The notes under the pieces are model-generated. The model was given only the letters and a program-made list of their open reading frames with translations. It made no database searches and had not been told where the DNA came from. This document shows, one piece after another, positions 3,485 through 64,000 of a DNA stretch of 64,000 nt. The stretch is from a virus (lineage: Duplodnaviria; Caudoviricetes), in the IMG/VR virus record IMGVR_UViG_3300031867_000038, positions 9,954 to 73,953 of that record. The stretch is one strand, 5' to 3'. Position numbers and translations under genes: made by a program. Every line of letters begins with the position of its first letter. The stretch's first letter is position 1.

Positions 3485-3937
3485 ATGAATATTCGTTTTG
3501 GATCTAATGAATATGCATTAGTGCCAGGTTCTGGAATTAATACTCTTGGGAATGGTATTGATATTCAGTTATTAGCGCAAGATGTAAATTTAAATAGTCT
3601 TACTGACGTATTAAAAAATTCTGCTAATACTGAAACTATTAAAGTTGTGGATGGAGATACCACCACTCAAGTTATTGAAGGTTATTCTAAATTAGATCAT
3701 ATGGAAATTAGATATGATCAAATATATTTTACAGAATATGAAGAAGTAATTATTGTTCCAGCTCATCATGATTCAGAGACTGGCGAAGAAGTTCCAGCTC
3801 AGACCGAAATGGTTCCTCAGGATTTAACTGCTGATATTGTTTATATTCATATGGTTAAGCCTGGTCTTGAAGGTCAAGTAAAAGAAAATACTGCTAATAT
3901 TGAGTTCCTCGCTATTATGAGCGATATTGAACTTTAA
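3485..3937 (+). CDS. tail-fibre-associated hypothetical protein
   Basis: 150 aa, AAAGGAG RBS, followed by XkdX-like ORF. Confidence 0.6.
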   Translation: MNIRFGSNEYALVPGSGINTLGNGIDIQLLAQDVNLNSLTDVLKNSANTETIKVVDGDTTTQVIEGYSKLDHMEIRYDQIYFTEYEEVIIVPAHHDSETGEEVPAQTEMVPQDLTADIVYIHMVKPGLEGQVKENTANIEFLAIMSDIEL

Positions 3938-3954
3938 TTAGGAGGTAAATATAA

Positions 3955-4095
3955 ATGCATAGTCAAAATTTTATGAAGATTAAAGGCTATTATGACGCAG
4001 GTCTTTGGTCTATTGAAAAAGTGCGTGCGGTTGTTGGCAAGCGCCTTGGAATCACAGCGGAAGAATTTTTTGAGATCACTGGGCAGAGATATTAA
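3955..4095 (+). CDS. XkdX-family small protein (46 aa, not in ORF track)
   Basis: MHSQNFMKIKGYYDAGLWSIEKVRAVVGKRLGITAEEFFEITGQRY; YY..GLW...V......ITAEEF.EITG motif; AGGAGG RBS. Confidence 0.8.
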   Translation: MHSQNFMKIKGYYDAGLWSIEKVRAVVGKRLGITAEEFFEITGQRY

Positions 4096-4182
4096 ATTAA
4101 TTGCAAGTGATTTTTACAATCTTATGGAGAGAAGAATAAAAGACAATTTTTAATTGAATAATAGCTAGTAATAGCTTAGTAT

Positions 4183-4255
4183 ATAACCCCTTCTTTCCAT
4201 AAGGAGGGGTTATTTTTTTATGCCTTCTCTCATTTGAGAGAAGGCATTTTTTTTT
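4183..4255 (+). terminator. two tandem intrinsic terminators
   Basis: ATAACCCCT...AGGGGTTAT plus T-run; ATGCCTTCTCTCA-TT-TGAGAGAAGGCAT plus T-run. Confidence 0.85.
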
Positions 4256-6761: not shown

Positions 6762-7273
6762 TAGCTAATCCTTTCAGCATATTGATTAGGAGAAGCTAAA
6801 TTTACTCCTAATACTTTATCATAATGTGATTCACAATCAGGAATAAATCTCCCATATTTTATAATTATATTATCATAATTTTTAAGTTTTGTCAAGATAT
6901 CCATTTTAATAAAGACACCCATTGCAGGAGCTTTACTTAATTCTTCTTTTGTATATCCAGTATAAATTACAATATCATCATGGCAATCATACAAATGACG
7001 TAACATATAAATAAAATTTACTACAGTGAGCATACTATCAAATGGTTCTAATCCTTGCATAACAATAGCTTCAGTAATAGGATTAGCAAGATATCTTTCA
7101 ATTAATGTTACATCATTTATATCTATATTGGGGGCGGAGGCTAGGTCTGAATTTTGACAAACCTGGCGCCCGCACTCTTTATCACATTTAAAAGTACAAT
7201 ATGGAAATTCTAGAACCATTGAAGGTTTTTTATAATTTACAAAATCTTCATCAATTAGTCCTTTGAGTATCAT
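6761..7273 (-). CDS. nrdG: anaerobic RNR activase (radical SAM)
   Basis: CTFKCDKEC cluster motif, GLEPF, YTGY; adjacent to nrdD. Confidence 0.85.
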   Translation of the reverse strand: MILKGLIDEDFVNYKKPSMVLEFPYCTFKCDKECGRQVCQNSDLASAPNIDINDVTLIERYLANPITEAIVMQGLEPFDSMLTVVNFIYMLRHLYDCHDDIVIYTGYTKEELSKAPAMGVFIKMDILTKLKNYDNIIIKYGRFIPDCESHYDKVLGVNLASPNQYAERIS

Positions 7274-9222
7274 AATGCCTCACTTGTTTGATTGATAGCT
7301 TCCCATCTTCTAAGTTTATATTCGCTCTTTCTATTTTTAGACCAGGTCTGAATTGGAGTATAAAATCCAACTATTCTTGTATATTCAGTTTCAACTGGTT
7401 TTCCACATACAGGGCAAGTTCTTCCATAAAATGCATGATTATCTTCACAAGCTTGAATCTTGGTATTAAAAGCAAAGTAGGTTACACCTTGATCAGCAAT
7501 ATATTCAACCATTTTTCTAGCTTTTTCATAACTATCAAAAGGAGAATCAATGTTAGCGTGAAGAATTGAGCCACCATTGCAATAGCCATCAAATAATGCT
7601 TGAACTCTTACTCTTTCTTGCAGAGTTGTTTTAATTCCAAGTGGCATAAACTGATTACCATATAGCGGCAGGTCATAAATATCAGCATCAGGATAAAAGA
7701 ATTTATCTTTACGCATTAGTTTGTCTGCAGCACTTTCACCTGGAATTTGTTCTGTATTAATTTTATAATCTGCGCCCATATCAATAATGAATTGATCTGC
7801 AACTTCCCGCATAGTTTTAAAAATCTTTTCTCCTAGTGCGGCTGCACGATCATCATAAAAAGTATTACCAAATTGATCTTGATTAATATAGCCAAAACGT
7901 TTCATAGTTTCATATACGCCAATAAAACCAATCGTATTATATAAATGTTCAAAATCAACTAATCCATATGAGAAATTAGGAAGTAATCCTTTTTCAACAT
8001 TCCGTTGAATGATATGTCTAACGCAATCTAGAGCTCTGAGTGCGACAAGGGTGCGCCCGCGCAGATTCTCGATAAACTCTTCTTCATCTTTTGAATCAAG
8101 TGCGCAACGAGCTAGATTAATAGTATTAACTTTAACAGAACCAACTTTAAGAGCTGTTCCACCTATTGAATTGAAATAACCTAAATCTCTAATGTCACTC
8201 TTTAATCTACAACAATTTGATAGACTATTGACTGAGTCATCAATAAAAAGGTTACTATCGCTCCATTGTATATTATGTTCTATAGCCCAATGAGCAAATC
8301 CTTCATCTTCAAATTTGCCATTTTTTCTAAGTAATGAAATTGTAGAAACTGGGAATGTGAACATATTATCATTACGAGTTGCAGCCATCTCTTCTAAGTA
8401 CCACTTTTGAAATTCAATGACTTCATCTTCTGCATCAATCATAAAACTACCATCAGGAAATTCGCTGCCGCCAAATAATGCTTCATAATAAGGATGGTCA
8501 AATACAGAAGTATTAGTAAATGCTGATTGTTGCCCATCACGTACATAGGGCTGGTTTACTGCGTATATAAATCTCTGGAAATTCTGTCGAGCATATTTTT
8601 CTTCACTATGACTCATTCTAATTCCGAGATAATCTGATTCAACATCTTTGTGCCAGAAATAATACATATATGGAATTAGATTTGGCAGACCAACTGCGCC
8701 AGAAGATCTATTACTAGCAAAGCCAATGAACTCTTTAACAAAATCTACAAAAGTAGTAAGATGCTGTGCGGGCTGTGGGTTAAAAGTACCGCCAATGAAA
8801 TACAACCCTTTTTCTGCTAAATCTTTAAGATCATATGCAAAGCAATAATGTTTAAAAGTAGAAGTATCTGAGTCATGCATATAAAGCTGCCCAATCCATT
8901 CCATTCTCAGCCATTCATTCGCAGCTTTAAATCCAAACCTCTTTTGCATCTCATAATAAATTTTATTAAATGCAAGCACTTTTCTATGGGGTTTTGGCAT
9001 TTCAGATAAAAGTGTTACTATATCTTTTCTGCCTACATTACTATTTCCATCAATAGAAGAATCTGCTACTGTAGATTCATCAATAAAATTTGAAATAAAA
9101 TCTGTATAAGAGAGTTGTTCATCTGCAAAACCATTAATTTGCGCGAGTTCAGTTCCAAACTCTCCTTGTAATTTATTATATTGAGTAGTAAAATTTTTAC
9201 CTAATCGAACATTTATTTCCAA
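7270..9222 (-). CDS. nrdD: class III anaerobic ribonucleotide reductase (no ATP cone seen)
   Basis: YMHD, HYCFA, NCCRL, C-terminal CPVCG and TRIVGFY glycyl-radical loop. Confidence 0.95.
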   Translation of the reverse strand: MEINVRLGKNFTTQYNKLQGEFGTELAQINGFADEQLSYTDFISNFIDESTVADSSIDGNSNVGRKDIVTLLSEMPKPHRKVLAFNKIYYEMQKRFGFKAANEWLRMEWIGQLYMHDSDTSTFKHYCFAYDLKDLAEKGLYFIGGTFNPQPAQHLTTFVDFVKEFIGFASNRSSGAVGLPNLIPYMYYFWHKDVESDYLGIRMSHSEEKYARQNFQRFIYAVNQPYVRDGQQSAFTNTSVFDHPYYEALFGGSEFPDGSFMIDAEDEVIEFQKWYLEEMAATRNDNMFTFPVSTISLLRKNGKFEDEGFAHWAIEHNIQWSDSNLFIDDSVNSLSNCCRLKSDIRDLGYFNSIGGTALKVGSVKVNTINLARCALDSKDEEEFIENLRGRTLVALRALDCVRHIIQRNVEKGLLPNFSYGLVDFEHLYNTIGFIGVYETMKRFGYINQDQFGNTFYDDRAAALGEKIFKTMREVADQFIIDMGADYKINTEQIPGESAADKLMRKDKFFYPDADIYDLPLYGNQFMPLGIKTTLQERVRVQALFDGYCNGGSILHANIDSPFDSYEKARKMVEYIADQGVTYFAFNTKIQACEDNHAFYGRTCPVCGKPVETEYTRIVGFYTPIQTWSKNRKSEYKLRRWEAINQTSEAL

Positions 9223-47690: not shown

Positions 47691-48947
47691 TTATGAATGG
47701 AAACGTAAAAGGAAACTATTACTTACTGCCTTAAAAGATTTAGTTCCGTCAATGCTTCTCAGTACAAACCCCTCCCGCGGCAGCCCATCAATTTTAGATT
47801 CACCTTCGGCAAGGAAGAGAAGCTTATCCAGTCGAGATTCTCCCTTCATGATATCAAGCATATTAAAAGTGAAGTTCGGCTCAAGGATTGGAACACAAGG
47901 AACGTTAAATCCATTCTCTAGCAGATTCTTCATTGCATGGCTATTCCATCTACCCTTATCAGAAGTAATAAGATTAAATGCAGCAAAGTCATGTCCAGCA
48001 AGTCCATAGTCTCTTTTCTGGACGCCCGCACCATAAGTTTCTCCCTGGATAGTGACCCAATTAGCATTAGGCATCCGTTCAAGAAGTTCATTCAACACCT
48101 TGTACATATCATACTTCTGCGCCATTTCCCAATAAATATTAGTATCATAGTAACAAGGCTTATCTACACTATCAAAGCACACGTTACGAGAACAAACATA
48201 AAATTCATTCTTGCGGCGGCCACGCTTCATGGTGAAAGTAGTAGAACTACCATCAATTTTTTCAGTGATAATCCATTCCCCTTCATCTTCCAGAATCCAA
48301 GGCATGTTCTGAACTCTTTCTTCATCGGTCTTTACAACCCACTCTGGCCAGCTATTCTTTTTGTCTTTCTTCTTACCAAAGAATACAAACATCAACTTTC
48401 GGCCCCATGCGCGCTTCATCAGCCAACGCACCCAAGACTTCTTAAAGATGTTAGGATGACGCTGTGCCATTTTCTTATACTTATCTACAGAAGGAGCCTT
48501 GCGCTGGTTATCTTCCACGTCCGCATAAGTTACACCAAGTTCTTTAGTAAGGAAACGAGATTCTCTATCTGCCCAGTGAATTACACCTTTATCATCAGCG
48601 ATACCAACTTCATGTTCATTGGTGTTATGATTATTATTTTCCCAAATTTCCCAACCAAAATCTTCTGCGTGCATAAGAAGACCTTGACTTATAACCTTGC
48701 ACATACGAAGTGTTTTTACCTTATAGTTCCGCTTCTCAAGAAATGCAAAACATTCTTTATCAGACGGAACTTTGGAGTCAATCTCAAAATAGATCGCGGG
48801 ATCACCAACGTTAAACTGGCCTTTTTGAACAATTACCCACCAACCACCGACACGGGCATGCTCAACACGATCATAATTAGGAATAGGACGAATTTCATCA
48901 ATCGTTACAACATAAGCAAGCTCCCGAGACCCCTCTTTATTCAACAT
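47691..48947 (-). CDS. RNA ligase (DRB0094/Rnl2-like)
   Basis: N-terminal OB-like region (FEIDS), TEKIDGSS, QGETYG, REGFV, FKAVS. Confidence 0.88.
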   Translation of the reverse strand: MLNKEGSRELAYVVTIDEIRPIPNYDRVEHARVGGWWVIVQKGQFNVGDPAIYFEIDSKVPSDKECFAFLEKRNYKVKTLRMCKVISQGLLMHAEDFGWEIWENNNHNTNEHEVGIADDKGVIHWADRESRFLTKELGVTYADVEDNQRKAPSVDKYKKMAQRHPNIFKKSWVRWLMKRAWGRKLMFVFFGKKKDKKNSWPEWVVKTDEERVQNMPWILEDEGEWIITEKIDGSSTTFTMKRGRRKNEFYVCSRNVCFDSVDKPCYYDTNIYWEMAQKYDMYKVLNELLERMPNANWVTIQGETYGAGVQKRDYGLAGHDFAAFNLITSDKGRWNSHAMKNLLENGFNVPCVPILEPNFTFNMLDIMKGESRLDKLLFLAEGESKIDGLPREGFVLRSIDGTKSFKAVSNSFLLRFHS

Positions 48948-49779: not shown

Positions 49780-50037
49780 TTACATCCAAACTTTCTGAAT
49801 ATTATACATTTCTTTATTCCATCTTAATACTCTATCCCAAGTTTGCTGTGCATAAATATGACAATCTAAAGTAGGATTTATAACATCAATCCAATGCGCG
49901 TCAGCTGCTTCCTGCATTTCAGATCTAAAATCTTCCATAAAAATATCTAGGAGTTGTTCTTCGAGCGGCCGCCGCGTTTTTGCGACAGCTACTACTTCAC
50001 CATTTTCAACATCGACAAGGCAATAAATTTTTTTCAT
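49780..50037 (-). CDS. hypothetical protein
   Basis: 85 aa, coupled. Confidence 0.55.
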   Translation of the reverse strand: MKKIYCLVDVENGEVVAVAKTRRPLEEQLLDIFMEDFRSEMQEAADAHWIDVINPTLDCHIYAQQTWDRVLRWNKEMYNIQKVWM

Positions 50038-50597
50038 AGTTTATATCCTCTCTTTCTTGCTCTTTTAGTAGCATCATCAATCGTCGTTCTATGAATACTT
50101 TCACATTCTTTTAATCTACCAGATTTTACAAATTGGTTAAAGTTAATAGGAGTATATCCCATTACATCTGCGCATACGCATAAATGCCCTTTACGATCTA
50201 CGGTAATGTTATGAGTATGTCCATGAATGTTAAACATCCAGTCTATATCCAGAGGCTCATGCGAAAGAATAATGCGAGGGGAAATAATTAAAGGCCCCGT
50301 ATATACTTCATCAAAAATTTCTTCATATGCAGATGCGCCTACATCATGGTTGCCGCATATAAGAATTTTATAACCTTTTAATTTTCTGGCCCACTCGCAG
50401 TCTCCTACATCACCAAGATGAATTAGCGTTCCAGTTTTACCAACCTTTTGGTTAATTTGTTTTACTAGTTCATCGGGATCAGGGCGTTTGGGAAAAGCTT
50501 TGCGTAAACCATCTTCATTGAAATGTGTGTCAGATATGAGCCACACACCATTTTTCTCAGTCCAATGCTGAAAAGGTTTATATAATCCTTCAATCAT
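50034..50597 (-). CDS. metallophosphoesterase
   Basis: SDTHF, HLGDVG, GNHD, SHEP, HGHTH. Confidence 0.88.
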   Translation of the reverse strand: MIEGLYKPFQHWTEKNGVWLISDTHFNEDGLRKAFPKRPDPDELVKQINQKVGKTGTLIHLGDVGDCEWARKLKGYKILICGNHDVGASAYEEIFDEVYTGPLIISPRIILSHEPLDIDWMFNIHGHTHNITVDRKGHLCVCADVMGYTPINFNQFVKSGRLKECESIHRTTIDDATKRARKRGYKL

Positions 50598-50598
50598 A

Positions 50599-50826
50599 TC
50601 AAAACATCTCCGTTAAGTTACTTTTAATTAATTCAATATCTTGTATAGGTACTATAATTTTATTACCATTTAAGAGAGTTAGATTTATTCGATTAGGATA
50701 AATAAAGCTATCAATTATTCCATGTTTATTAATAGCTTCTGCGGCAACTGGATCATTATGTTCAATATCACCTTTAATTAAAACCAAGTCTCCAATTTTA
50801 AAATCATTCAACATATGTAACCTCAA
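50599..50826 (-). CDS. hypothetical (KOW/SH3-like) protein
   Basis: FKIGDLVLIKG. Confidence 0.4.
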   Translation of the reverse strand: MRLHMLNDFKIGDLVLIKGDIEHNDPVAAEAINKHGIIDSFIYPNRINLTLLNGNKIIVPIQDIELIKSNLTEMF

Positions 50827-51496
50827 ATGTATTTAAATTTAAAAGAGCTGCACGATGACTAACCACACTACAAAGATCAATATCTATTTTATGTCCATTA
50901 CAATATGTAATAATTTCAGGTGGATTTTTTCTACGGATGCCGAGATACTCTGCCAAATATTGTACAGGAGTATGTCCATGAATAATAATTTGAGATGATG
51001 CGTTAGGAAGACATTCAGGCCAACTATCATAAAAATGGTATCTATCCCATAAAAGATCAGAAAGTTCTTCACATCCAAAAGTAAATCCAGCGTGGGTTAA
51101 ATGGATAATTTGTCCTTTATTATTTGTAACAATTTGTTTGATTGGCAAATGATCACACCAAGTTTTAAAACTATAAATTTCACTATCAGACTTAGTTTCA
51201 TCCATTAATGTAAACCAAGTTTCATTGCCGCCATTAATGCACCAATTAAATACATCAGAGCTATCATGGCCTAGAAGCATGTCAGGAATCGCGGCAGCCG
51301 CCATGGCTTCATGATTACCTTTTAAAACTATTAAATTAGATATTTCCTGTTGTTCTTTACAGATTTTATAACTGCCAGGCCCACGATCAATGTTATCTCC
51401 AAGACAATAAAAAGTGTCTTGAGGGGTGATTTTATTTTTGATTTTTTCCCATAGATCATATTGTCCATGGAGATCAGAAAACACATAAAGCCCCAT
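50804..51496 (-). CDS. Ser/Thr protein phosphatase-type metallophosphoesterase
   Basis: SDLHG, GDNIDRG, KGNHE, HAG, HGHTP; promoter 51527-51555. Confidence 0.9.
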   Translation of the reverse strand: MGLYVFSDLHGQYDLWEKIKNKITPQDTFYCLGDNIDRGPGSYKICKEQQEISNLIVLKGNHEAMAAAAIPDMLLGHDSSDVFNWCINGGNETWFTLMDETKSDSEIYSFKTWCDHLPIKQIVTNNKGQIIHLTHAGFTFGCEELSDLLWDRYHFYDSWPECLPNASSQIIIHGHTPVQYLAEYLGIRRKNPPEIITYCNGHKIDIDLCSVVSHRAALLNLNTFEVTYVE

Positions 51497-57505: not shown

Positions 57506-59002
57506 TTAAGTAATCGCCATATAACGATTACTATTAAGTTTGTCCATCATCAGATCAGTCCCAGTTTTACCTGATACTACCTGCTCAAACAACACTGGGC
57601 TAAATCCTGATACAAAACTAATATCTGGACCAGAATCAAGAATTGTGTTATCTCTTGCATCTACATTCCAATAAACAAGCTTCGGTATTTTAATACCATA
57701 GTGAAGCCAGCTATTGCGAATTTTTTCCATTTCAGTTGCAGCGGAGTCAGTTGTCCAATAAGAGGAACTATTACCACGACCCCAATCATTCCATGATCGA
57801 GTTCCCTCATCAATCTGCATATCTGAAATCACAACGATTGTATCAGGGAGATCTTCTACTTTTGCTTTTCCGCTGATAATCATATTAAGCAGAAGATCAA
57901 AAACAGCTTCCAGATTAGTATTATCACACAAATTTGTTCGATAAATTCGCATGACCTTATCTGTCAAATCTGCGCCCTCAATATGAATAAGTTGAGGTCT
58001 ACTAGCAAAGCTAATATAATGATCTTTAAAAGCTCCACGATTACGCTCAGCTGCATACATTCCCAGACCAATTGCGACATTAATAGGAGTCCCATACATA
58101 CTCCCAGAAGTATCTACAACAGGCAGAATAGAATGAGTTGAACCATTAAAATAATCAGGAAGGTTATCCCAATATTTTTCAACAGCTACTCGCTCTGAAT
58201 CTTCCATCTTGTAATGACATGCATCAAGAGCCTTTTCTACTACCTCATAAGGATAAAGAGTAGTGGCATTAACTTTAGTAGACTTATCTTTAATAAAAGC
58301 TTCATACTTAGCTTTAATAAGATCACGTCTAGCAAAAGCATTTTTATAGATCAAACCTGCTTTTGAAGGGATTTTATCAAATTCAATTTGATCCCACTGG
58401 TTAGAAGACATTAACTTCTCTACCACTTTGATACGAGTACGCAATTCACTAAGAATTTTACGATACTGTTTATGACTCAGTGAGAGAGAGCTTCTCAGTT
58501 TATTTGCAACGCGCGCAGTTTCTTTGCTGGAAGCATTTTCAGAAGGCATCCATTTTGCCAAAAGAGAAGGAGTTTTGCACTTGGTATCCAACAGAAGCTG
58601 CTTCTCAATAATGCTAAAAGCGATCTTTTCTGCGGGGGTGCCTTCACAGATATAGATTAGATCATCCCACCGCCCATACTCTGGAATAAGAGCGATATTA
58701 CGAAGAGCTATATCAATATGGTTAATACACAGCCACCGATAAACTGTGCGGAAGAAGCGCCGCTCGCCCTGGCCGCCGCGCACATCACGCAGATAAAATA
58801 GGCATTTAAGAGCATAAAGCTCATTTTCATACAATGCATTACTAAATAGTGTAATAGCATCTGCATCAGATCTTTTGCGGTAAGCTCCACCAAAAGCAAA
58901 AAGATCATATAGAGCTGAATTAGTGGATTTATGGGCGAGTGCGCCATTTTCAGTGCGTGTATAATTCTGCTGGTTATTAAGGCTAGAAATAAAAGAGTTC
59001 AT
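57506..59002 (-). CDS. DUF2828 TROVE/Ro60-like protein with vWA domain
   Basis: TENGA, FYLRDVRGGQGERR, YGRWDD, AKWMPSE, VDTSGSM MIDAS. Confidence 0.85.
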   Translation of the reverse strand: MNSFISSLNNQQNYTRTENGALAHKSTNSALYDLFAFGGAYRKRSDADAITLFSNALYENELYALKCLFYLRDVRGGQGERRFFRTVYRWLCINHIDIALRNIALIPEYGRWDDLIYICEGTPAEKIAFSIIEKQLLLDTKCKTPSLLAKWMPSENASSKETARVANKLRSSLSLSHKQYRKILSELRTRIKVVEKLMSSNQWDQIEFDKIPSKAGLIYKNAFARRDLIKAKYEAFIKDKSTKVNATTLYPYEVVEKALDACHYKMEDSERVAVEKYWDNLPDYFNGSTHSILPVVDTSGSMYGTPINVAIGLGMYAAERNRGAFKDHYISFASRPQLIHIEGADLTDKVMRIYRTNLCDNTNLEAVFDLLLNMIISGKAKVEDLPDTIVVISDMQIDEGTRSWNDWGRGNSSSYWTTDSAATEMEKIRNSWLHYGIKIPKLVYWNVDARDNTILDSGPDISFVSGFSPVLFEQVVSGKTGTDLMMDKLNSNRYMAIT

Positions 59003-59039
59003 ATTAATCTCCTATCTTTGACAAGATATATTTTTTATA

Positions 59040-59180
59040 TTAGTTAGTGCTATCTGAGATATTTATTTCGTGGCTTGGAGCTGTAGTATGTAATTCTTGT
59101 TCTGTTGGCTGACTTTCTTCTTTATGGTCCATAACTTGCTTCTGAAGGTTTAAAGGACCAGGCGTTGCTTTTGTTGCCAT
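59040..59180 (-). CDS. hypothetical 46-aa protein
   Basis: GGAG RBS, ATG 59180. Confidence 0.35.
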   Translation of the reverse strand: MATKATPGPLNLQKQVMDHKEESQPTEQELHTTAPSHEINISDSTN

Positions 59181-59185
59181 ATTTA

Positions 59186-59416
59186 TCACTCTCCATAAAA
59201 AATAGCCCAATCATGTTGATCATATGTAGTATATCTTTTTTTACAATCAGGGCAATAAATAGTAAAAAAAGAATCATTTTTATCACTATCGTAATCTATA
59301 TGTAGATCTTCTTCTTCAAAAGTAAAAATACATCCACATTTATTACATGTTATTTTATAGTGTTTAATACCAGGTGAAAGAATTTTTATCATATTATTCT
59401 CCTTATGGCGCCGCAC
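59186..59416 (-). CDS. Zn-ribbon hypothetical protein
   Basis: CNKCGC...CPDC; true start probably after the tRNA (MIKILSPG). Confidence 0.55.
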   Translation of the reverse strand: MRRHKENNMIKILSPGIKHYKITCNKCGCIFTFEEEDLHIDYDSDKNDSFFTIYCPDCKKRYTTYDQHDWAIFYGE

Positions 59417-59497
59417 GTAGGTCCCGCCCCCAACTAGGCTCCCACCTAGCCAACCGATTTCAAGTCGGAGCCAGCGCGCTTGTCTGGTTCATGCGGC
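59406..59497 (-). tRNA. tRNA-Ser(UGA), non-canonical D- and T-loops
   Basis: GCCGCAU/GUGCGGC acceptor, G73-CCA, loop CUUGAAA, long variable arm with GGGA loop; T-loop GGCGGGA. Confidence 0.7.
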
Positions 59498-59501
59498 GTA
59501 A

Positions 59502-59608
59502 AATATGCGAATAAGGATTTGCACCTTATATAACATACAGCGTTTGTCTCGGTTAGTTTCAATTGTCTCTTGTCTCACTCTAGCGTCTACCTATTCCGCC
59601 ATCGCATA
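59502..59608 (-). ncRNA. tRNA-Leu-like scaffold with 33-nt repeat loop instead of an anticodon
   Basis: UAUGCGA/UCGCAUA stem, D-arm GGCGGAAUAGGUAGACGC, T-arm UAAGG-UGCAAAU-CCUUA; no anticodon loop, no encoded CCA. Confidence 0.7.
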
Positions 59609-59621
59609 TTAAATTAATTAT

Positions 59622-60152
59622 TTAGGGCCATTCTCCAAGAGGTTTACCTAGATTACCACGTTCAATATCGGTATTATAATAAACTCCATTTAGATCTGCA
59701 TCTTCAAAGATCTCGCTAGCAATATCTTGATACAAAGTGCTAAGTACACCATGACAATCATTCAGATTATCATTAAAGAACTGTACTACACAATTTTTAA
59801 ATACAACATAAGTTGCACTATAAAACCAGGTTTCATCACCAGGTGTTACTGAATAAGCATAGACAGGATTCCCACTAAAAGCAGTATCAAAAAGCTCTTT
59901 CTGCGTTGTGAAAGCAATATTACTAACTGGACCGTCAATAACAATCTTCAGTACAATATTACCAAAAATTTTCTCTTCAGGAAGCAGACACCAAAGAGCC
60001 GCATTTTTATCTCCATTATTTCCAGCAATAGTGACTGTCAATTCATCATAGTCAATATTAAATGCAAGCTGAGGATCTGGATCAAATAAGGCTTGCAGTT
60101 TATTAACATAGGTAATCCAGGGTGGTGCGAGTTTTAATCTAATATTAGACAT
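59622..60152 (-). CDS. hypothetical protein
   Basis: AGGAG RBS; start 60152 or 60158 (the ORF-track extension overlaps a tRNA). Confidence 0.65.
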   Translation of the reverse strand: MSNIRLKLAPPWITYVNKLQALFDPDPQLAFNIDYDELTVTIAGNNGDKNAALWCLLPEEKIFGNIVLKIVIDGPVSNIAFTTQKELFDTAFSGNPVYAYSVTPGDETWFYSATYVVFKNCVVQFFNDNLNDCHGVLSTLYQDIASEIFEDADLNGVYYNTDIERGNLGKPLGEWP

Positions 60153-60171
60153 AGGCATTTCTCCTAAATAA

Positions 60172-60281
60172 AAATTGTGTGCGGCGACCGCCCTACGCTC
60201 CACACATGAGGACACTTTACTTTCAGTCCTAACCATACTACTTTTGATCCCGAGGCATAGCCATCCCCGCTCATGCATGTT
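60172..60281 (-). ncRNA. GC-rich structured RNA in tRNA-Ser 3' trailer
   Basis: CAUGCAUGAG/CUCAUGUGUG 10-bp stem enclosing hairpins. Confidence 0.4.
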
Positions 60282-60282
60282 G

Positions 60283-60374
60283 TGGCGCCTGTGGTGCGTG
60301 CCGACCACACTCAAGCTTTACAGCTCCTAACTCCTTAGCAGAGAGTCCCCTTTGCCAACATTGGGTACACAGGC
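60283..60374 (-). tRNA. tRNA-Ser(GCU), non-canonical T-loop
   Basis: GCCUGUG/CACAGGC, G73-CCA, loop CUGCUAA, variable arm GUAA tetraloop, T-loop GUCGGCA. Confidence 0.82.
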
Positions 60375-60446
60375 ATATAAATGTCATTGATTATCGGTTC
60401 AATAACAAAAACCTTTATATGTCCTAAACTATAAGTAAAGGATTAC

Positions 60447-60533
60447 TGGTGCGGGTGGCCGGACTTGAACCGGCACGGGCTAAAGCCCAACAGATTTTAA
60501 GTCTGTGGTGTCTACCTATTCCACCACACCCGC
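60447..60533 (-). tRNA. tRNA-Leu(UAA)
   Basis: Canonical cloverleaf, CUUAAAA loop, GGUUCAAGUCC, ACCA. Confidence 0.95.
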
Positions 60534-60541
60534 ATATTAGC

Positions 60542-60603
60542 AAAACACTTTTTATTGACCGTTTTGCAGACGATTGATTTTTTAAATTGCTGTTTGTGTC
60601 TTT
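60542..60603 (-). ncRNA. stem-CAGCAA RNA A, carrying a Cys(GCA) anticodon stem-loop
   Basis: AAGACAC/GUGUUUU stem; AAACAGCAA; AUCGU-CUGCAAA-ACGGU; promoter 60621-60649 directly upstream. Confidence 0.6.
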
Positions 60604-60645
60604 CTTTATCTTACAAATATATTATATCAAAAATTTTTTAAATTT

Positions 60646-60927
60646 TCAAATGTCAGTATTTTCTCTATATTCATATTCTTCTTCGGAGCAATAGTTCCAT
60701 CCACAATGAGTCATGGCATTATCATAATACAATTTTTCATCTTCTTCTGATTCCCACTGTGAATCCCAGCCGCGTTCCATATATTCATATGTTTCAGCAT
60801 TTTCATAAGCATATTCATTAGACATATCATTAATTTCATTTTCAGATACATCATCTTCAAATGCTACATACTCTTCATAGTCAGTGCCGCAGTACCCATT
60901 ATTACCAAAAAATATTACATACTTCAT
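60646..60927 (-). CDS. acidic hypothetical protein
   Basis: AAAGGAG RBS before ATG 60927. Confidence 0.6.
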   Translation of the reverse strand: MKYVIFFGNNGYCGTDYEEYVAFEDDVSENEINDMSNEYAYENAETYEYMERGWDSQWESEEDEKLYYDNAMTHCGWNYCSEEEYEYRENTDI

Positions 60928-60949
60928 TAAAGAGTTCTCCTTTAAAAAC

Positions 60950-61116
60950 AAGACAGCAAGTTCTGTTTTATTACCTAACGAATGGCGGTGGCTTACAAAC
61001 TAGAACCACAATAAACTCAGCGTTTTCACATAGGTTTTAAATCAAGCGTCTTATAATAAGACATCTATTTTCATTGTAATAAATAATTACATTGATTTTG
61101 CTGTAATACTGTCTTT
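60950..61116 (-). ncRNA. stem-CAGCAA RNA B
   Basis: AGACAGUA/UGCUGUCU stem, UUACAGCAA, internal hairpins; starts just after the tRNA-Ile CCA. Confidence 0.55.
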
Positions 61117-61117
61117 A

Positions 61118-61194
61118 TGGTACTCTAGGTTGGACTCGAACCAACGATCATCGGATTATAAGTCCGACGCTCAAACCAACTGAGCTGCTAGAGT
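61118..61194 (-). tRNA. tRNA-Ile(UAU)
   Basis: ACUCUAG/CUAGAGU, UCGGA-CUUAUAA-UCCGA, GGUUCGAGUCC, ACCA. Confidence 0.92.
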
Positions 61195-61201
61195 ATATAA
61201 A

Positions 61202-61952
61202 TGGCGGGCGTGCAATTGCTAGTCGGTCTCAACCCAGTACTAGTTCAATCACGCGCATCTTATCGGGGTTGCACAGATGTTATTGTACGTCTACTCGCGC
61301 TTCATAGCGTAGACGTTCGGGAGTTCTCTCTCCTCGTGTCCCTTTCCTAAGCATTATTTTCTTCACGGCTTTTTATACTTGCCTACCGCCATATAGAACT
61401 CTTCTCATTTCAACTTGAACCTGTGAGAACTTTTAGAGATTAGCCAGGGACAACTCCCCTACTGTTAAACAAACCACCTATTCTTTATGGACACTTAATA
61501 GAGTGTTATTGTTTCTATTAAACCACTTTCGCTTGTTTATACTGTACATTTTTATCCAGTTTACTCGATCAAGCCATATTTCCCCCTTGGGTGGATTTAT
61601 TTTTGGCTCATCCCATAAGTCTTTATCATGACTTCAACCTATGGCGACTGACGAAGGGACAGGCTACCACTGCCCGAGCTGGATTTTTACTTTGTAACTT
61701 GCTTATTCCGCCACAGCGCGGTCAAGCGAAACCGCTTTGCAAAGTTGGAGGTTTTACCATCGCTATCGCAGATTAAACCTACCTTAAACGATGCGAGCAT
61801 AGCGCTCATCTTTAGTTTACCTTTTGAAACTCTGAGGTATATGCCTTACCATCTGTAAAGTCACCCAGCTAGATTTTAACAAGTTACCCCTGAGATCTGC
61901 TTGTGTCGTCGAGAGCCTTTTGAGTAGCTAATTCATATCTCTCTCGATCTTA
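61202..61952 (-). ncRNA. ~750-nt large structured RNA, GOLLD-like candidate
   Basis: Own promoter (61960-61988), no credible same-strand ORF, many stems, adjacent to a tRNA, ends ...CCGCCA. Confidence 0.65.
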
Positions 61953-61991
61953 CATATATATTATAGCAAAAATTTTTCTTTTTTGCAAGTG

Positions 61992-62375
61992 TTAATTAGG
62001 AACTCTACCTTCTAGTCTTGGAAATCTACCTTCTAGTCTTGCTTGTTGATTTGGATTAGGATTTTCATTCCAAACCTTCCAACGCGTAGTAATACATTCA
62101 TTCACCCAACGAATTACTCGATAATCAAAAGAATAGTTATTAAATACTTCGGTTTCTACCTTACCAGTTTTATTATCTTTCAGTTGAAGAACAACCAAAA
62201 ATTCTGCGCCACTTTTATCTTCATAAGGATGAAAATATGCTGCCCGTTGAGTTAAAATGAAACGACCATGCCAAAGCCAATCAAATTTGATACTCTGATT
62301 GTAGTCCCGAACAATTTTATTTACATCTCTTTGATACTTTTTTCGGTATAAAACTGAACGTCTGTTTTTTAGCAT
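61992..62375 (-). CDS. hypothetical protein
   Basis: AGAGGAG RBS, 127 aa. Confidence 0.6.
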   Translation of the reverse strand: MLKNRRSVLYRKKYQRDVNKIVRDYNQSIKFDWLWHGRFILTQRAAYFHPYEDKSGAEFLVVLQLKDNKTGKVETEVFNNYSFDYRVIRWVNECITTRWKVWNENPNPNQQARLEGRFPRLEGRVPN

Positions 62376-62391
62376 ATTTCCTCCTATTAAT

Positions 62392-62721
62392 TTAACTCAA
62401 TTCTTTCAACAGCGCATCAACCTGCTGCGCAGCAGTATTATAAGCCAGGTATGCATCATGATAATACTGCTCAGCATGAGTCAGTTTATCTTCTACGGCG
62501 TTATATTCATCAAGAGCATCATTCATTTTCTGGCTGGCTCTTTCATATCTCTTCGCGGCGACCTTTTCATTACAACGCGCGGCCGCCAGAGCCTTACCTT
62601 TTTCTACATCAAACTTATCATGCTCAGAACAAATAGCGACCCCGCGCACAGTCTTTCCAGCGTAGGTAGACAAAGCAATAATCTTACGCCCAACAATTAC
62701 ATAACGATAATTTGTAAACAT
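62392..62721 (-). CDS. hypothetical protein
   Basis: AGGAGG RBS; promoter 62750-62778. Confidence 0.7.
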   Translation of the reverse strand: MFTNYRYVIVGRKIIALSTYAGKTVRGVAICSEHDKFDVEKGKALAAARCNEKVAAKRYERASQKMNDALDEYNAVEDKLTHAEQYYHDAYLAYNTAAQQVDALLKELS

Positions 62722-62767
62722 TATTTCATTCCTCCTTGATTATGTATATATTATATAATAATTTTTA

Positions 62768-63223
62768 TTAATTTGCAAGAGTCATAATTGTATCTAATTT
62801 CTTAGCCTCTTGATAATGAGTATTAATAAATTGAATTGCCCATTTATTTGCTGCTAATTCATCTTGAATACTCCAATATTTTAAATTAGCGGTTTTTTCA
62901 TCTGTTTCATACCGTTCAGCAATAATTTCTTTTATAGTTGCAAACCATGATAACTCTTCATCACTAAAAGAAGGGATTGTAATATGATGTCCCAACTCAT
63001 GCAAAAAAGCTAAGGTATGAATATTAAATTCAGCTACCTGCGCGCATCCATGAGTTTTTAAAAAATCTTTGAACCAGTTTTCTGTAGTCCTGACGGCATC
63101 ATTCCCAATATAGATTGTATTTCCAGGAAGGCTATAACTATACTCTTCATCTTGCGCAACATATACCTGGAATCCATTATTATTTAACCAGTTCATAATA
63201 TCACGGCTGTGTTTCAACATCAT
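62768..63223 (-). CDS. HExxH metallopeptidase-like protein
   Basis: FLHELGHH...E..AN.WA; promoter 63246-63274. Confidence 0.65.
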   Translation of the reverse strand: MMLKHSRDIMNWLNNNGFQVYVAQDEEYSYSLPGNTIYIGNDAVRTTENWFKDFLKTHGCAQVAEFNIHTLAFLHELGHHITIPSFSDEELSWFATIKEIIAERYETDEKTANLKYWSIQDELAANKWAIQFINTHYQEAKKLDTIMTLAN

Positions 63224-63280
63224 ATATTCCCCCTTTGATATTATTATTATATCAAAAATTTTATTAATTTGCAATTAATA

Positions 63281-63312
63281 AAAAAATGCCAGTGATAAAT
63301 ATATCACTGGCA
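63281..63312 (-). terminator. terminator closing the ~410-nt ncRNA
   Basis: TGCCAGTGATA-TATT-TATCACTGGCA plus T-run. Confidence 0.85.
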
Positions 63313-63691
63313 AACTCCTTGTACCTCTTATATAGATAGAGGGCTAGAAGCACCTCGGAAGAGATTTAGCGCACGTTTAACGTGTGTGCGTCCACGTCAA
63401 TCAAGAGAGGGGTAAAGATTGAATACGTCCCTGTCAGATTTGAACTGACTATAAAACCAAAAGGGACATATAGAGGGAAATTCTTCCCTCATTGGTAATC
63501 CAAAGGGTGTCTTACCCAGATTAATCATAAGGAACCGTAAATAAATATTTTATGAAGAGCTGCTTGCTTTTTATCTTCTTTTGGCGGATGATCAACTCCG
63601 CTCCCAGCTACACGGTTATACTATAATTAGTCGTCACTCCATTGACGTATTTATTTACAACATACTGCGCATTATGCGTTCCTTATTTTGT
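63281..63691 (-). ncRNA. ~410-nt promoter-to-terminator structured RNA including a mini-tRNA (63425-63468)
   Basis: Consensus promoter 63698-63726; long stems 63678-63686/63527-63535 and 63648-63658/63537-63547; no ORF. Confidence 0.6.
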
Positions 63692-63724
63692 AATATAATT
63701 ATATCAAAATATTTGTTAATTGTC

Positions 63725-63805
63725 AAGGCGGTGTTTTTGATATAATTCTTTTTATATAATAGCAATCATGTTACATTTAAAACTTTATTTTGCTGAATCC
63801 GCCTT
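63725..63805 (-). ncRNA. stem-CAGCAA RNA C
   Basis: AAGGCGG/CCGCCUU stem, AUUCAGCAA; starts just after the tRNA-Trp CCA. Confidence 0.55.
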
Positions 63806-63806
63806 T

Positions 63807-63879
63807 TGGCAGGAGAGCAAGGACTTGGACCTTGAGTCACGGTTTTGGAGACCGTTGGTTTACCATTAACCGACCCCCT
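63807..63879 (-). tRNA. tRNA-Trp(CCA), partly degenerate
   Basis: ACGGU-CUCCAAA-ACCGU, GCCA end; T-loop UCCAAGU; 5' acceptor strand 1 nt short. Confidence 0.8.
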
Positions 63880-64000
63880 ATAAATTGGGGCATATTTCAG
63901 CCCCTCTGCTTAGGCTTTGAGATTAAAACCAAAAGTTATCAAAGAAATTATCGAAAAGATTAAACCAAGAATCTTCTCCGCCTTTTATAGTATAATGATA

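Follow-up and report, generated by a model that had tools for sequence, protein, structure and literature searches.

Non-coding RNAs encoded by phages have repeatedly been described close to tRNA genes. The GOLLD and ROOL RNAs are "often near tRNA islands", and tRNAs sometimes occur in the linker of GOLLD (10.1101/2024.12.08.627333; PMC5737381). The YrlA RNAs, of which phage examples are known, mimic tRNA, and their terminal stem has the Ro-binding motif GNCGAAN0-1G on its 5' side (PMC4201824). Here we analyse a transcription unit of about 411 nt (63281..63691, minus strand) in an AT-rich phage from the ruminant gut (rumen). The analysed window of 64 kb (64,000 nt) is the end portion of a 73,953-bp IMG/VR viral contig (IMGVR_UViG_3300031867_000038), which is classed as linear and estimated to be ~49% complete. 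Of several possible explanations, we favour one that we consider probable on balance, namely that the unit is a real, lineage-restricted gene for a stable, structured non-coding RNA (ncRNA) of ~0.38-0.41 kb, with functional conserved domains and with a tRNA-like minihelix that is an embedded tRNA relic.

By analogy, this RNA may be placed in the same ecological kind as GOLLD and ROOL, being phage-encoded and located beside tRNAs. Like these phage- or prophage-encoded RNAs, it lies in or beside a tRNA island, is highly structured and is likely co-transcribed with, or next to, tRNAs. It shares with GOLLD the combination of one conserved and one less conserved part, its embedded minihelix being comparable to the tRNAs sometimes found in the GOLLD linker, and with ROOL it shares a rumen origin. 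It differs in that neither Rfam model matches (E <= 10), in its length (~0.4 kb vs ~0.58 and ~0.8 kb), and in that it embeds a tRNA remnant, where GOLLD embeds a full tRNA.

All genes, tRNAs and promoters around the locus are on the minus strand, and the unit is therefore read on that strand. It is preceded by a sigma-70-type promoter (63698..63726, minus strand), with the -35 box TTGACA at 63726-63721, a 17-nt spacer and the -10 box TATAAT at 63703-63698. This promoter matches the consensus at 12/12 positions, has an extended-10 TG and was the best site within 59000-64000 in our promoter scan; the predicted transcription start is near 63691. At the other end is an intrinsic terminator (63280..63312, minus strand) with an 11-bp stem (63312-63287), a 4-nt loop and a subsequent U-run, the only strong minus-strand terminator in the same 5-kb region. 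The predicted primary transcript between the two is non-coding, and open reading frames (ORFs) of at least 60 aa are absent from the ~411-nt unit. The initial annotation of this stretch, which had described a perfect promoter and a strong terminator enclosing no ORF, is confirmed in these points.

Two other readings of the unit were rejected. A 43-aa minus-strand ORF (63397-63528) lacks a Shine-Dalgarno sequence, and 1-nt insertions in relatives frameshift both this ORF and a 38-aa ORF on the plus strand, which speaks against a small-ORF reading. A riboswitch or attenuator for the downstream gene was dismissed because there is a separate promoter after the terminator, and because an alternative pairing of the terminator stem was not found.

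The promoter is one of a series. The pattern TTGMMA-N17-TATAAT occurs at 11 sites in the window, all of them on the minus (gene) strand, where 0.43 would be expected, and this argues for a genuine promoter type of the phage. The 11 near-identical copies, of the TTGACAA...TTTTTGATATAAT type, are distributed from 14114 to 63726 (minus strand) in the same direction as the genes. Judged by their sequence, they appear to be a phage-wide family of early type that would be read by the host sigma-70/sigma-A polymerase. The segment 63684-63726 was found again in other phage contigs from the same samples. According to the interpretation that we favour, transcription of the RNA would start at this consensus early-type promoter of the phage itself and end at the intrinsic terminator. 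A tRNA-Trp(CCA) gene (63807..63880, minus strand) is located directly upstream, with no terminator in the interval, so that the unit is possibly also reached by read-through from there.

The folding energy of the RNA is clearly non-random. The minimum free energy (MFE) of the 411 nt is -122.5 kcal/mol, compared with -93.3 +/- 5.3 kcal/mol for shuffled sequences (z = -5.47), and 0/100 shuffles were as stable. Three parts can be distinguished in the predicted structure. The strongly conserved 5' domain (RNA 1-165; 63527..63691, minus strand) is multibranched and closed by stems of 9 bp and 12 bp; the initial annotation had noted this domain and its 9-bp stem correctly and had given 11 bp for the second. 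The variable middle part (RNA 166-267; 63425..63526, minus strand) consists of two hairpins and the minihelix. The 3' domain (RNA 268-379; 63313..63424, minus strand) begins with a hairpin that has a C-rich 14-nt loop (UUUACCCCUCUCUU) and continues with more hairpins; a ACCCCUCUCUU loop is predicted to be unpaired in this invariant domain. In the 5' domain, the 8-nt loop GUUGAUCA of an invariant hairpin (63589-63596, minus strand) includes the perfect palindrome UGAUCA (63589-63594), which was considered as a kissing-loop dimerisation site and set aside as statistically not notable.

Variation among close relatives indicates which of these parts are under selection. The stretch 63101-64000 of the window was compared with contigs assembled from two DNA runs (bovine and goat gut) and two metatranscriptome runs; variation is described by run (X2, X10, X20), and the RNA libraries are X19 and X20, from two different studies. 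A 3.7-kb bovine contig spans the whole stretch with ~97-98% identity, and a 31.5-kb goat contig covers 63101-63811 with similar identity. In the neighbouring gene, 12 of 132 nt are variable, and third-codon positions account for 10 of these sites (10/44). Of the 165 nt of the 5' domain only 2 vary (63677 and 63627), and of the 112 nt of the 3' domain none does (X2, X10 and X20). The middle part (63425-63526) has 10 variable sites in 102 nt, in addition to three distinct sites of 1-nt insertion (two runs have them after 63462 and 63471, and another run has one after 63485). Taken together, the 5' and 3' domains (2/277) differ from the third-codon positions (10/44) with p = 5e-8 (Fisher) and from the middle part with p = 6e-5, constraint on the two domains being ~30 times that on neighbouring synonymous sites. 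We would thus picture the RNA as two strongly constrained domains (5' ~165 nt, 3' ~110 nt) joined by a fast-evolving linker of ~100 nt, with the two conserved domains as the probable carriers of function.

Substitutions at paired positions outside the minihelix, when mapped on the MFE structure, preserve pairing in four of four events: G.U to A-U twice, A-U to G.U once, and one double change from A-U to G-C. In the 5' domain, G15>A turns a G.U into an A-U and so retains the pair. Positions 63489 and 63474, which belong to the hairpin GAGGGAA-GAAU-UUCCCUC (63473..63490, minus strand) of the middle part, co-vary from A-U to G-C in all four runs, a compensatory change.

Contigs from RNA libraries give moderate support for expression of the RNA. 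The X20 contig (381 nt, depth 22) covers 63317-63670 and enters the Illumina adapter at 63317, a few bases ahead of the terminator stem. Contigs from X19 cover ~63451-63724 and 63307-63395, the latter on a contig with flanks unlike the window. Neither RNA run covers the adjacent coding gene (63101-63280) or 63731-63900, and this lack of cover is not counted as evidence. The earlier proposal of a non-coding transcription unit is upheld; the unit is conserved by purifying selection in close relatives and is present in RNA-library contigs.

The middle part holds what appears to be the "top half" of a tRNA: a canonical T-arm and, stacked with it, an acceptor helix of 7 bp, while 12 nt stand for the other arms. 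The minihelix extends from 63468 to 63426 on the minus strand. Its 5' acceptor strand UGUCCCU (63462..63468) is followed by a 12-nt linker, UUUGGUUUUAUA (63450..63461), which has an invariant GG and replaces D arm, anticodon arm and variable loop, then by the canonical T-arm GUCAG-UUCAAAU-CUGAC (63433..63449) and by the 3' acceptor strand AGGGACG (63426..63432), after which the sequence continues with UAUUC; an anticodon arm is absent and CCA is not encoded. In the initial annotation the acceptor, the T-arm, the 12-nt linker with its GG and the lack of anticodon arm and CCA were all recognised correctly, and only the end, placed at 63425, has to be moved to 63426.

As in tRNAs, the 7-bp acceptor stem is directly joined to a 5-bp T stem, and the UUCRANY loop is closed by G53-C61; in the ensemble, the acceptor is paired with a probability of ~1.0 and the T stem with one of 0.91. 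The cloverleaf of a tRNA is not found: ARAGORN, which called 4 tRNAs in the window, made no call here, RF00005 does not match at E <= 10, and acceptor and T-arm are separated by 12 nt. The "acceptor" helix extends by three further pairs (AUA/UAU), and the minihelix therefore has no free tRNA-like end. The chance expectation for such an architecture is 0.033 per 64-kb window and 1e-4 per 411 nt of one strand, so that it is improbable at the given place, yet not rare over a scan of many windows.

Sequence identity points to a tRNA-Lys(CUU)-like gene as the most likely ancestor of the minihelix, the D arm and the anticodon arm having been lost. Its T-arm and 3' strand are identical at 23/23 nt to positions 49-71 of a metagenomic bacterial tRNA-Lys(CUU), in good agreement with the tRNA-likeness postulated earlier, and its 5' strand matches that of this tRNA at 5/7 positions. 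A perfect copy of tRNA-Lys positions 1-9 (GGUUCCUUA; 63528..63536, minus strand) lies 68 nt upstream of the minihelix, as one strand of the 5'-domain closing stem; the chance of finding it within ~110 nt is roughly 4e-4. A long-range "full tRNA" fold with GGUUCCU (63530-63536) as acceptor strand was discarded, since its energy is 10 kcal/mol above the MFE and the ensemble gives it zero probability.

In JGI metagenome contigs the 23-mer occurs three times, in two complete tRNA-Lys(CUU) genes (L089 and L090) and in one 3' half (L088). The matching tRNA-Lys is probably not the host's own tRNA, because it is absent from reference genomes and because the contigs that hold it are much more GC-rich than the phage. 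No parent was found among 603 phage tRNAs of related loci, the nearest having 6 mismatches in 24. The 3' half (L088:10940-10990, plus strand) is free-standing, reaches from the anticodon loop to position 72 and is located downstream of a tRNA-Gly and a terminator; it looks typical of the duplicated integration site that a mobile element leaves behind.

Within the minihelix, variation is unevenly distributed. The T-arm and the inner acceptor (29 nt) are invariant in X2, X10 and X20. Pair 1-72, which is U.G in the window, is U-A in two relatives and C.A in a third (U>C at 63468 in X10), and the first extension pair becomes A.C in relatives. In X2 and X20 a C is inserted in the C-run of the 5' strand and the linker has A>G at 63452. 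Because the outer pairs drift and a C is inserted, selection for an exact tRNA geometry is not visible.

The uncompensated changes and the indel in the acceptor might be expected if the minihelix had no function at the RNA level, i.e. if it were a decaying tRNA pseudogene or a recombination scar (including an attP-like tRNA 3' fragment) in a transcribed spacer. Its position in the fastest-evolving part of the RNA would fit, as would the rare truncated tRNA-like elements elsewhere in related islands (3 beside 603 tRNAs) and L088, which marks tRNA-Lys(CUU) as an integration target for some mobile element. It is then difficult to see why 29 nt should be invariant while the surroundings vary at ~10% of sites, and the strongly constrained flanking domains are left unexplained. 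An attP core in particular is unlikely: the complementary 5' strand, 12 nt upstream, is needless for an att site, the identity ends at tRNA position 71 with CCA lacking, and no integrase above the cut-off was found in the 74-kb record (~49% complete), where PF00589 reached only 17.9 bits and PF00239 gave nothing. This is the explanation to which we attach the least weight.

Rather unlikely, though deserving attention, is a processing signal in the manner of the plant-mitochondrial t-elements, with RNase P cutting 5' of U63468 and RNase Z cutting 3' of the discriminator (~63425). The products would be a ~223-nt 5' RNA, a ~45-nt minihelix to which CCA might be added, and a terminator-ended small RNA corresponding to the 3' domain. 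A 7-bp acceptor and a 5-bp T stem with the canonical UUCAAAU loop form the minimal shape recognised by RNase P and RNase Z, and the minihelix has this shape. Processing that is tRNA-like and at the 3' side is also known from MALAT1/mascRNA, with which the minihelix can be compared as being of the same type. The invariant 3' domain starts exactly at the 3' end of the minihelix, and one X19 RNA-library contig ends at 63451, beside the T-arm.

The t-elements resemble the minihelix in being incomplete tRNA-like folds with a conserved T-arm inside a longer transcript and potential RNase P/Z substrates (PMC1920247), and both they and the YrlA RNA of M. smegmatis are cut in this way, gaining C/A or CCA (PMC1920247; PMC4201824). 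They differ in that they keep a non-canonical cloverleaf and in that their ends are mapped transcript ends, whereas the X20 contig, at depth 22, runs unbroken across both predicted cleavage sites. Leader and trailer of the minihelix would be paired with each other, as the helix runs 3 bp past the acceptor, and CCA is not encoded. The C.A at pair 1-72, the A.C in the extension and the inserted C speak against selection for exact tRNA geometry. We prefer to regard the minihelix as an embedded relic whose T-loop hairpin may have been kept as a structural module or may offer tRNA enzymes a handle.

Other tRNA-like domains are less similar. The tRNA-like domain of tmRNA also combines an acceptor stem with a T-arm and a short D-loop-like joining strand and has no anticodon, but the minihelix has U1.G72 and U3-A70 (not G3.U70), lacks CCA, matches neither the tmRNA nor the tRNA model and is internal to a longer RNA. 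In a phage that is related via its DUF2828 gene (see below), we observed an 80-nt "mini-tmRNA" (L007:5845-5924, plus strand) that consists of the tRNA-like domain only. It has a GGGGCAG acceptor with G3.U70, a tmRNA-type D-loop, a T-arm and CUGCUCC-ACCA, is without tag reading frame and pseudoknots, and scores 69.5 bits end-to-end on the tmRNA model. Phage T4 encodes in its tRNA cluster species 1 and 2, stable ncRNAs of ~120-140 nt that are processed from a tRNA precursor. They resemble the present RNA in being stable ncRNAs from the tRNA region of a virulent phage; the RNA described here differs in having its own promoter and terminator.

The RNA gene is at the head of an island of tRNA and RNA-metabolism genes, comprising tRNAs, a protein with a predicted Ro60 fold, an RNA ligase and phosphoesterases. 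The ligase (PF09414 plus an OB-fold domain; 47691-48947) and two calcineurin-like phosphoesterases (50034-50597 and 50804-51496), all on the minus strand and a few kb from the tRNA island, could be a tRNA-repair set.

The makings of tRNA repair in this island are among the observations that would suit a decoy or sponge, in which a host factor is titrated by the host-like top half of tRNA-Lys or by C-rich loops in the 3' domain; the target might be a defence nuclease or toxin directed at tRNA, an enzyme that modifies tRNA, or sequences resembling Shine-Dalgarno sites. Such a role agrees with the identity of 23 nt to a bacterial tRNA-Lys, with a promoter that is the strongest of the window and with the unpaired ACCCCUCUCUU loop within the invariant 3' domain. 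Known tRNA-Lys nucleases usually target the anticodon loop, which the minihelix does not have. Moreover, the matching tRNA occurs in no reference genome and its contigs are GC-richer, so that it is probably not a host tRNA, and the outer acceptor pairs drift. We consider a decoy very unlikely. A bolder proposal is that of a new class of phage ncRNA whose two domains display the tRNA-Lys top half and thereby, early in infection, attract or tie up defence factors or tRNA-specific enzymes of the host, or which is cut by RNase P/Z to free a C-rich regulatory small RNA, acting alongside a repair island of Ro60-like protein and RNA ligase; this seems to us quite unlikely.

The initial annotation had further suggested a Y-RNA-like tRNA domain and a possible link to the DUF2828 protein encoded 4.3 kb downstream (57506..59002, minus strand). 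This protein of 498 aa matches DUF2828, DUF7788 and phrog_850 ("RNA-binding protein"), and its AlphaFold model, computed with a 20-sequence alignment, has a pLDDT of 82. The best full-length Foldseek matches are a TROVE-domain crystal structure, the Ro60 of Thermus phage phiLo and the Ro autoantigen (E 7e-9 to 1e-6, TM 0.5-0.6), and a DxSxS MIDAS motif is invariant. Because of the Foldseek matches and the invariant motif, we regard the protein as Ro60-like, with a predicted TROVE plus vWA fold. Homologs of DUF2828 occur in 711 cultured phage records. In the 80 IMG/VR loci with a homolog, ARAGORN called 603 tRNAs, all on the strand of the gene, and in most loci that have tRNA calls the array is just upstream of the DUF2828 gene. 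By analogy, this context resembles bacterial loci for Ro60, Y RNA and RNA repair.

As a Y-RNA-like partner of the Ro60-like protein, the RNA would use its tRNA-like module as the effector-binding part, in the manner of YrlA. The protein is Ro60-like over its full length, its gene shares both strand and tRNA island with the RNA, and YrlA RNAs, which mimic tRNA, are known in phages (PMC4201824). YrlA and other bacterial Y RNAs, which are bound by Ro60/Rsr, are similar to the present RNA in combining an ncRNA with a tRNA-like module and a canonical T-arm, in a locus that encodes a Ro60-fold protein and RNA-repair enzymes. Most other features do not agree. The Ro-binding motif GNCGAAN0-1G is absent from the RNA and from the entire minus strand of 59000-64000, the gene strand of the island. 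The topology is another one, with a T-arm only and no D arm, and the ends of the RNA exit via the acceptor helix, not at the anticodon position. The RNA has no Rfam match, and 4.3 kb with three ORFs and three tRNA genes called by ARAGORN lie between it and the protein gene. Across the 80 loci it is not conserved with the gene: covariance models of both domains found nothing there or in five whole related records, and on this basis the RNA does not appear to be the conserved partner of the DUF2828 protein. With no homolog in the 1.17 Mb around 80 phage DUF2828 genes, neither the Y-RNA-like reading nor a specific DUF2828 link is supported, and we take such a partnership to be highly improbable.

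Judged by its sequence and distribution, a different element appears to be a better candidate for a Y-like partner than the ~0.4-kb RNA. It has a 7-bp closing stem, then CAGCAA within 0-4 nt and an AU-rich loop, and recurs between tRNAs, mostly directly after one. Copies were found in the window (63725-63805, minus strand) and at L078:419-468, 476-539, 1084-1166 and 1175-1244, L003:399-463, L004:514-579, and L011:3719-3807, 3900-3979, 4078-4202 and 7197-7305. These elements reach DUF2828 phages as distant as 36% protein identity, and one copy ends at the -35 box of the RNA.

The tRNA arrays of the related phages have further peculiarities. Three tRNA-like elements of 54-59 nt on the plus strand (L030:1824-1877, L012:2784-2840 and L028:3088-3146) were missed by ARAGORN; they combine a 7-bp acceptor with "UA", a single middle arm and a canonical T-arm. 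Those of L030 and L012 retain a D-like arm without an anticodon arm, and the L030 element is also on an extended helix. That anticodon-less tRNAs are common in these islands was rejected, as there are three clean cases in 1.1 Mb and a relaxed scan gave 5 on the plus and 3 on the minus strand, which is noise. Matches of 118-133 nt to the tRNA model (L009:4536-4664, L012:191-308 and L011:4212-4344, plus strand) are tRNAs with inserts of ~50-60 nt. A tRNA with CUA anticodon (called tRNA-Pyl by ARAGORN) occurs in L009, L010, L011, L014, L019, L026, L040, L035, L065, L069, L072 and L075, and one with UCA anticodon in L008 and L052; such suppressor tRNAs suggest stop-codon recoding in this phage group.

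Searches for more distant homologs of the RNA were negative. A cmscan against all 4227 Rfam 15 families returned the neighbouring tRNAs only (inclusion of YrlA in this library was not confirmed by accession), and the isolated region gave only weak terminator-driven matches at E <= 10, with no YrlA, GOLLD, ROOL, tmRNA (RF00023) or tRNA (RF00005), consistent with the earlier view that the RNA may belong to no described family. There was no homolog by blastn in 50,697 GenBank phage records, by nhmmer and sensitive blastn in the 80 DUF2828 loci, or, as a paralog, by self-comparison within the window. Exact-pattern scans of IMG/VR with three patterns gave one match (L087), a 22-mer that occurs by chance within GC-rich coding sequence, and scans of GTDB/reference genomes with two patterns gave 0 matches. 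Covariance models built from the single sequence of the 3' domain (R1) and of the 5' domain (R2) found only the window itself in the 1.17 Mb of the 80 DUF2828 loci, and nothing credible in the five whole related records (best 9.1 bits, E = 0.86). Homologs of the downstream gene exist in ENA/Logan (P0001-P0007, 65-93% identity); next to its distant homologs in L011 and L014 there are ORFs upstream, and the RNA is not there. The homolog search named as a check in the initial annotation has thus had a divided outcome, with relatives of ~97% identity in cattle and goat gut and nothing in IMG/VR, GTDB genomes or GenBank phages.

Several points weigh against the interpretation that we favour. If the RNA represents a family, the distribution of its sequence indicates a very narrow one that would be confined to one phage lineage. 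The secondary structure is essentially a thermodynamic prediction, as the relatives are near-identical and contribute almost no covariation. The RNA-library contigs are assembled sequences and no proof of transcription, strand or ends, and one X19 contig extends 33 nt upstream of the predicted start, into the promoter. As to the origin of the minihelix, the 23-mer was matched by no more than two tRNA genes and a single fragment among 241 million records, and exact-pattern scans found it neither in IMG/VR nor in 185,579 reference genomes; the match to tRNA-Lys is possibly a coincidence among constrained tRNA-like sequences.

Abundant structured RNAs (GOLLD, ROOL, the stable RNAs of T4) are found repeatedly in large virulent phages that have tRNA islands, and the RNA described here adds a compact example of ~0.4 kb. 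It has useful properties, namely clear transcription signals, selection that is ~30-fold stronger than on neighbouring synonymous sites, and contigs in rumen metatranscriptomes. The embedded tRNA remnant offers a biochemical handle, since cleavage by RNase P/Z, CCA addition and T-loop modification can be assayed. The Ro60 fold and the same-strand tRNA array make the RNA partner of a phage Ro60 directly testable, and the ~0.4-kb RNA is probably not the answer.

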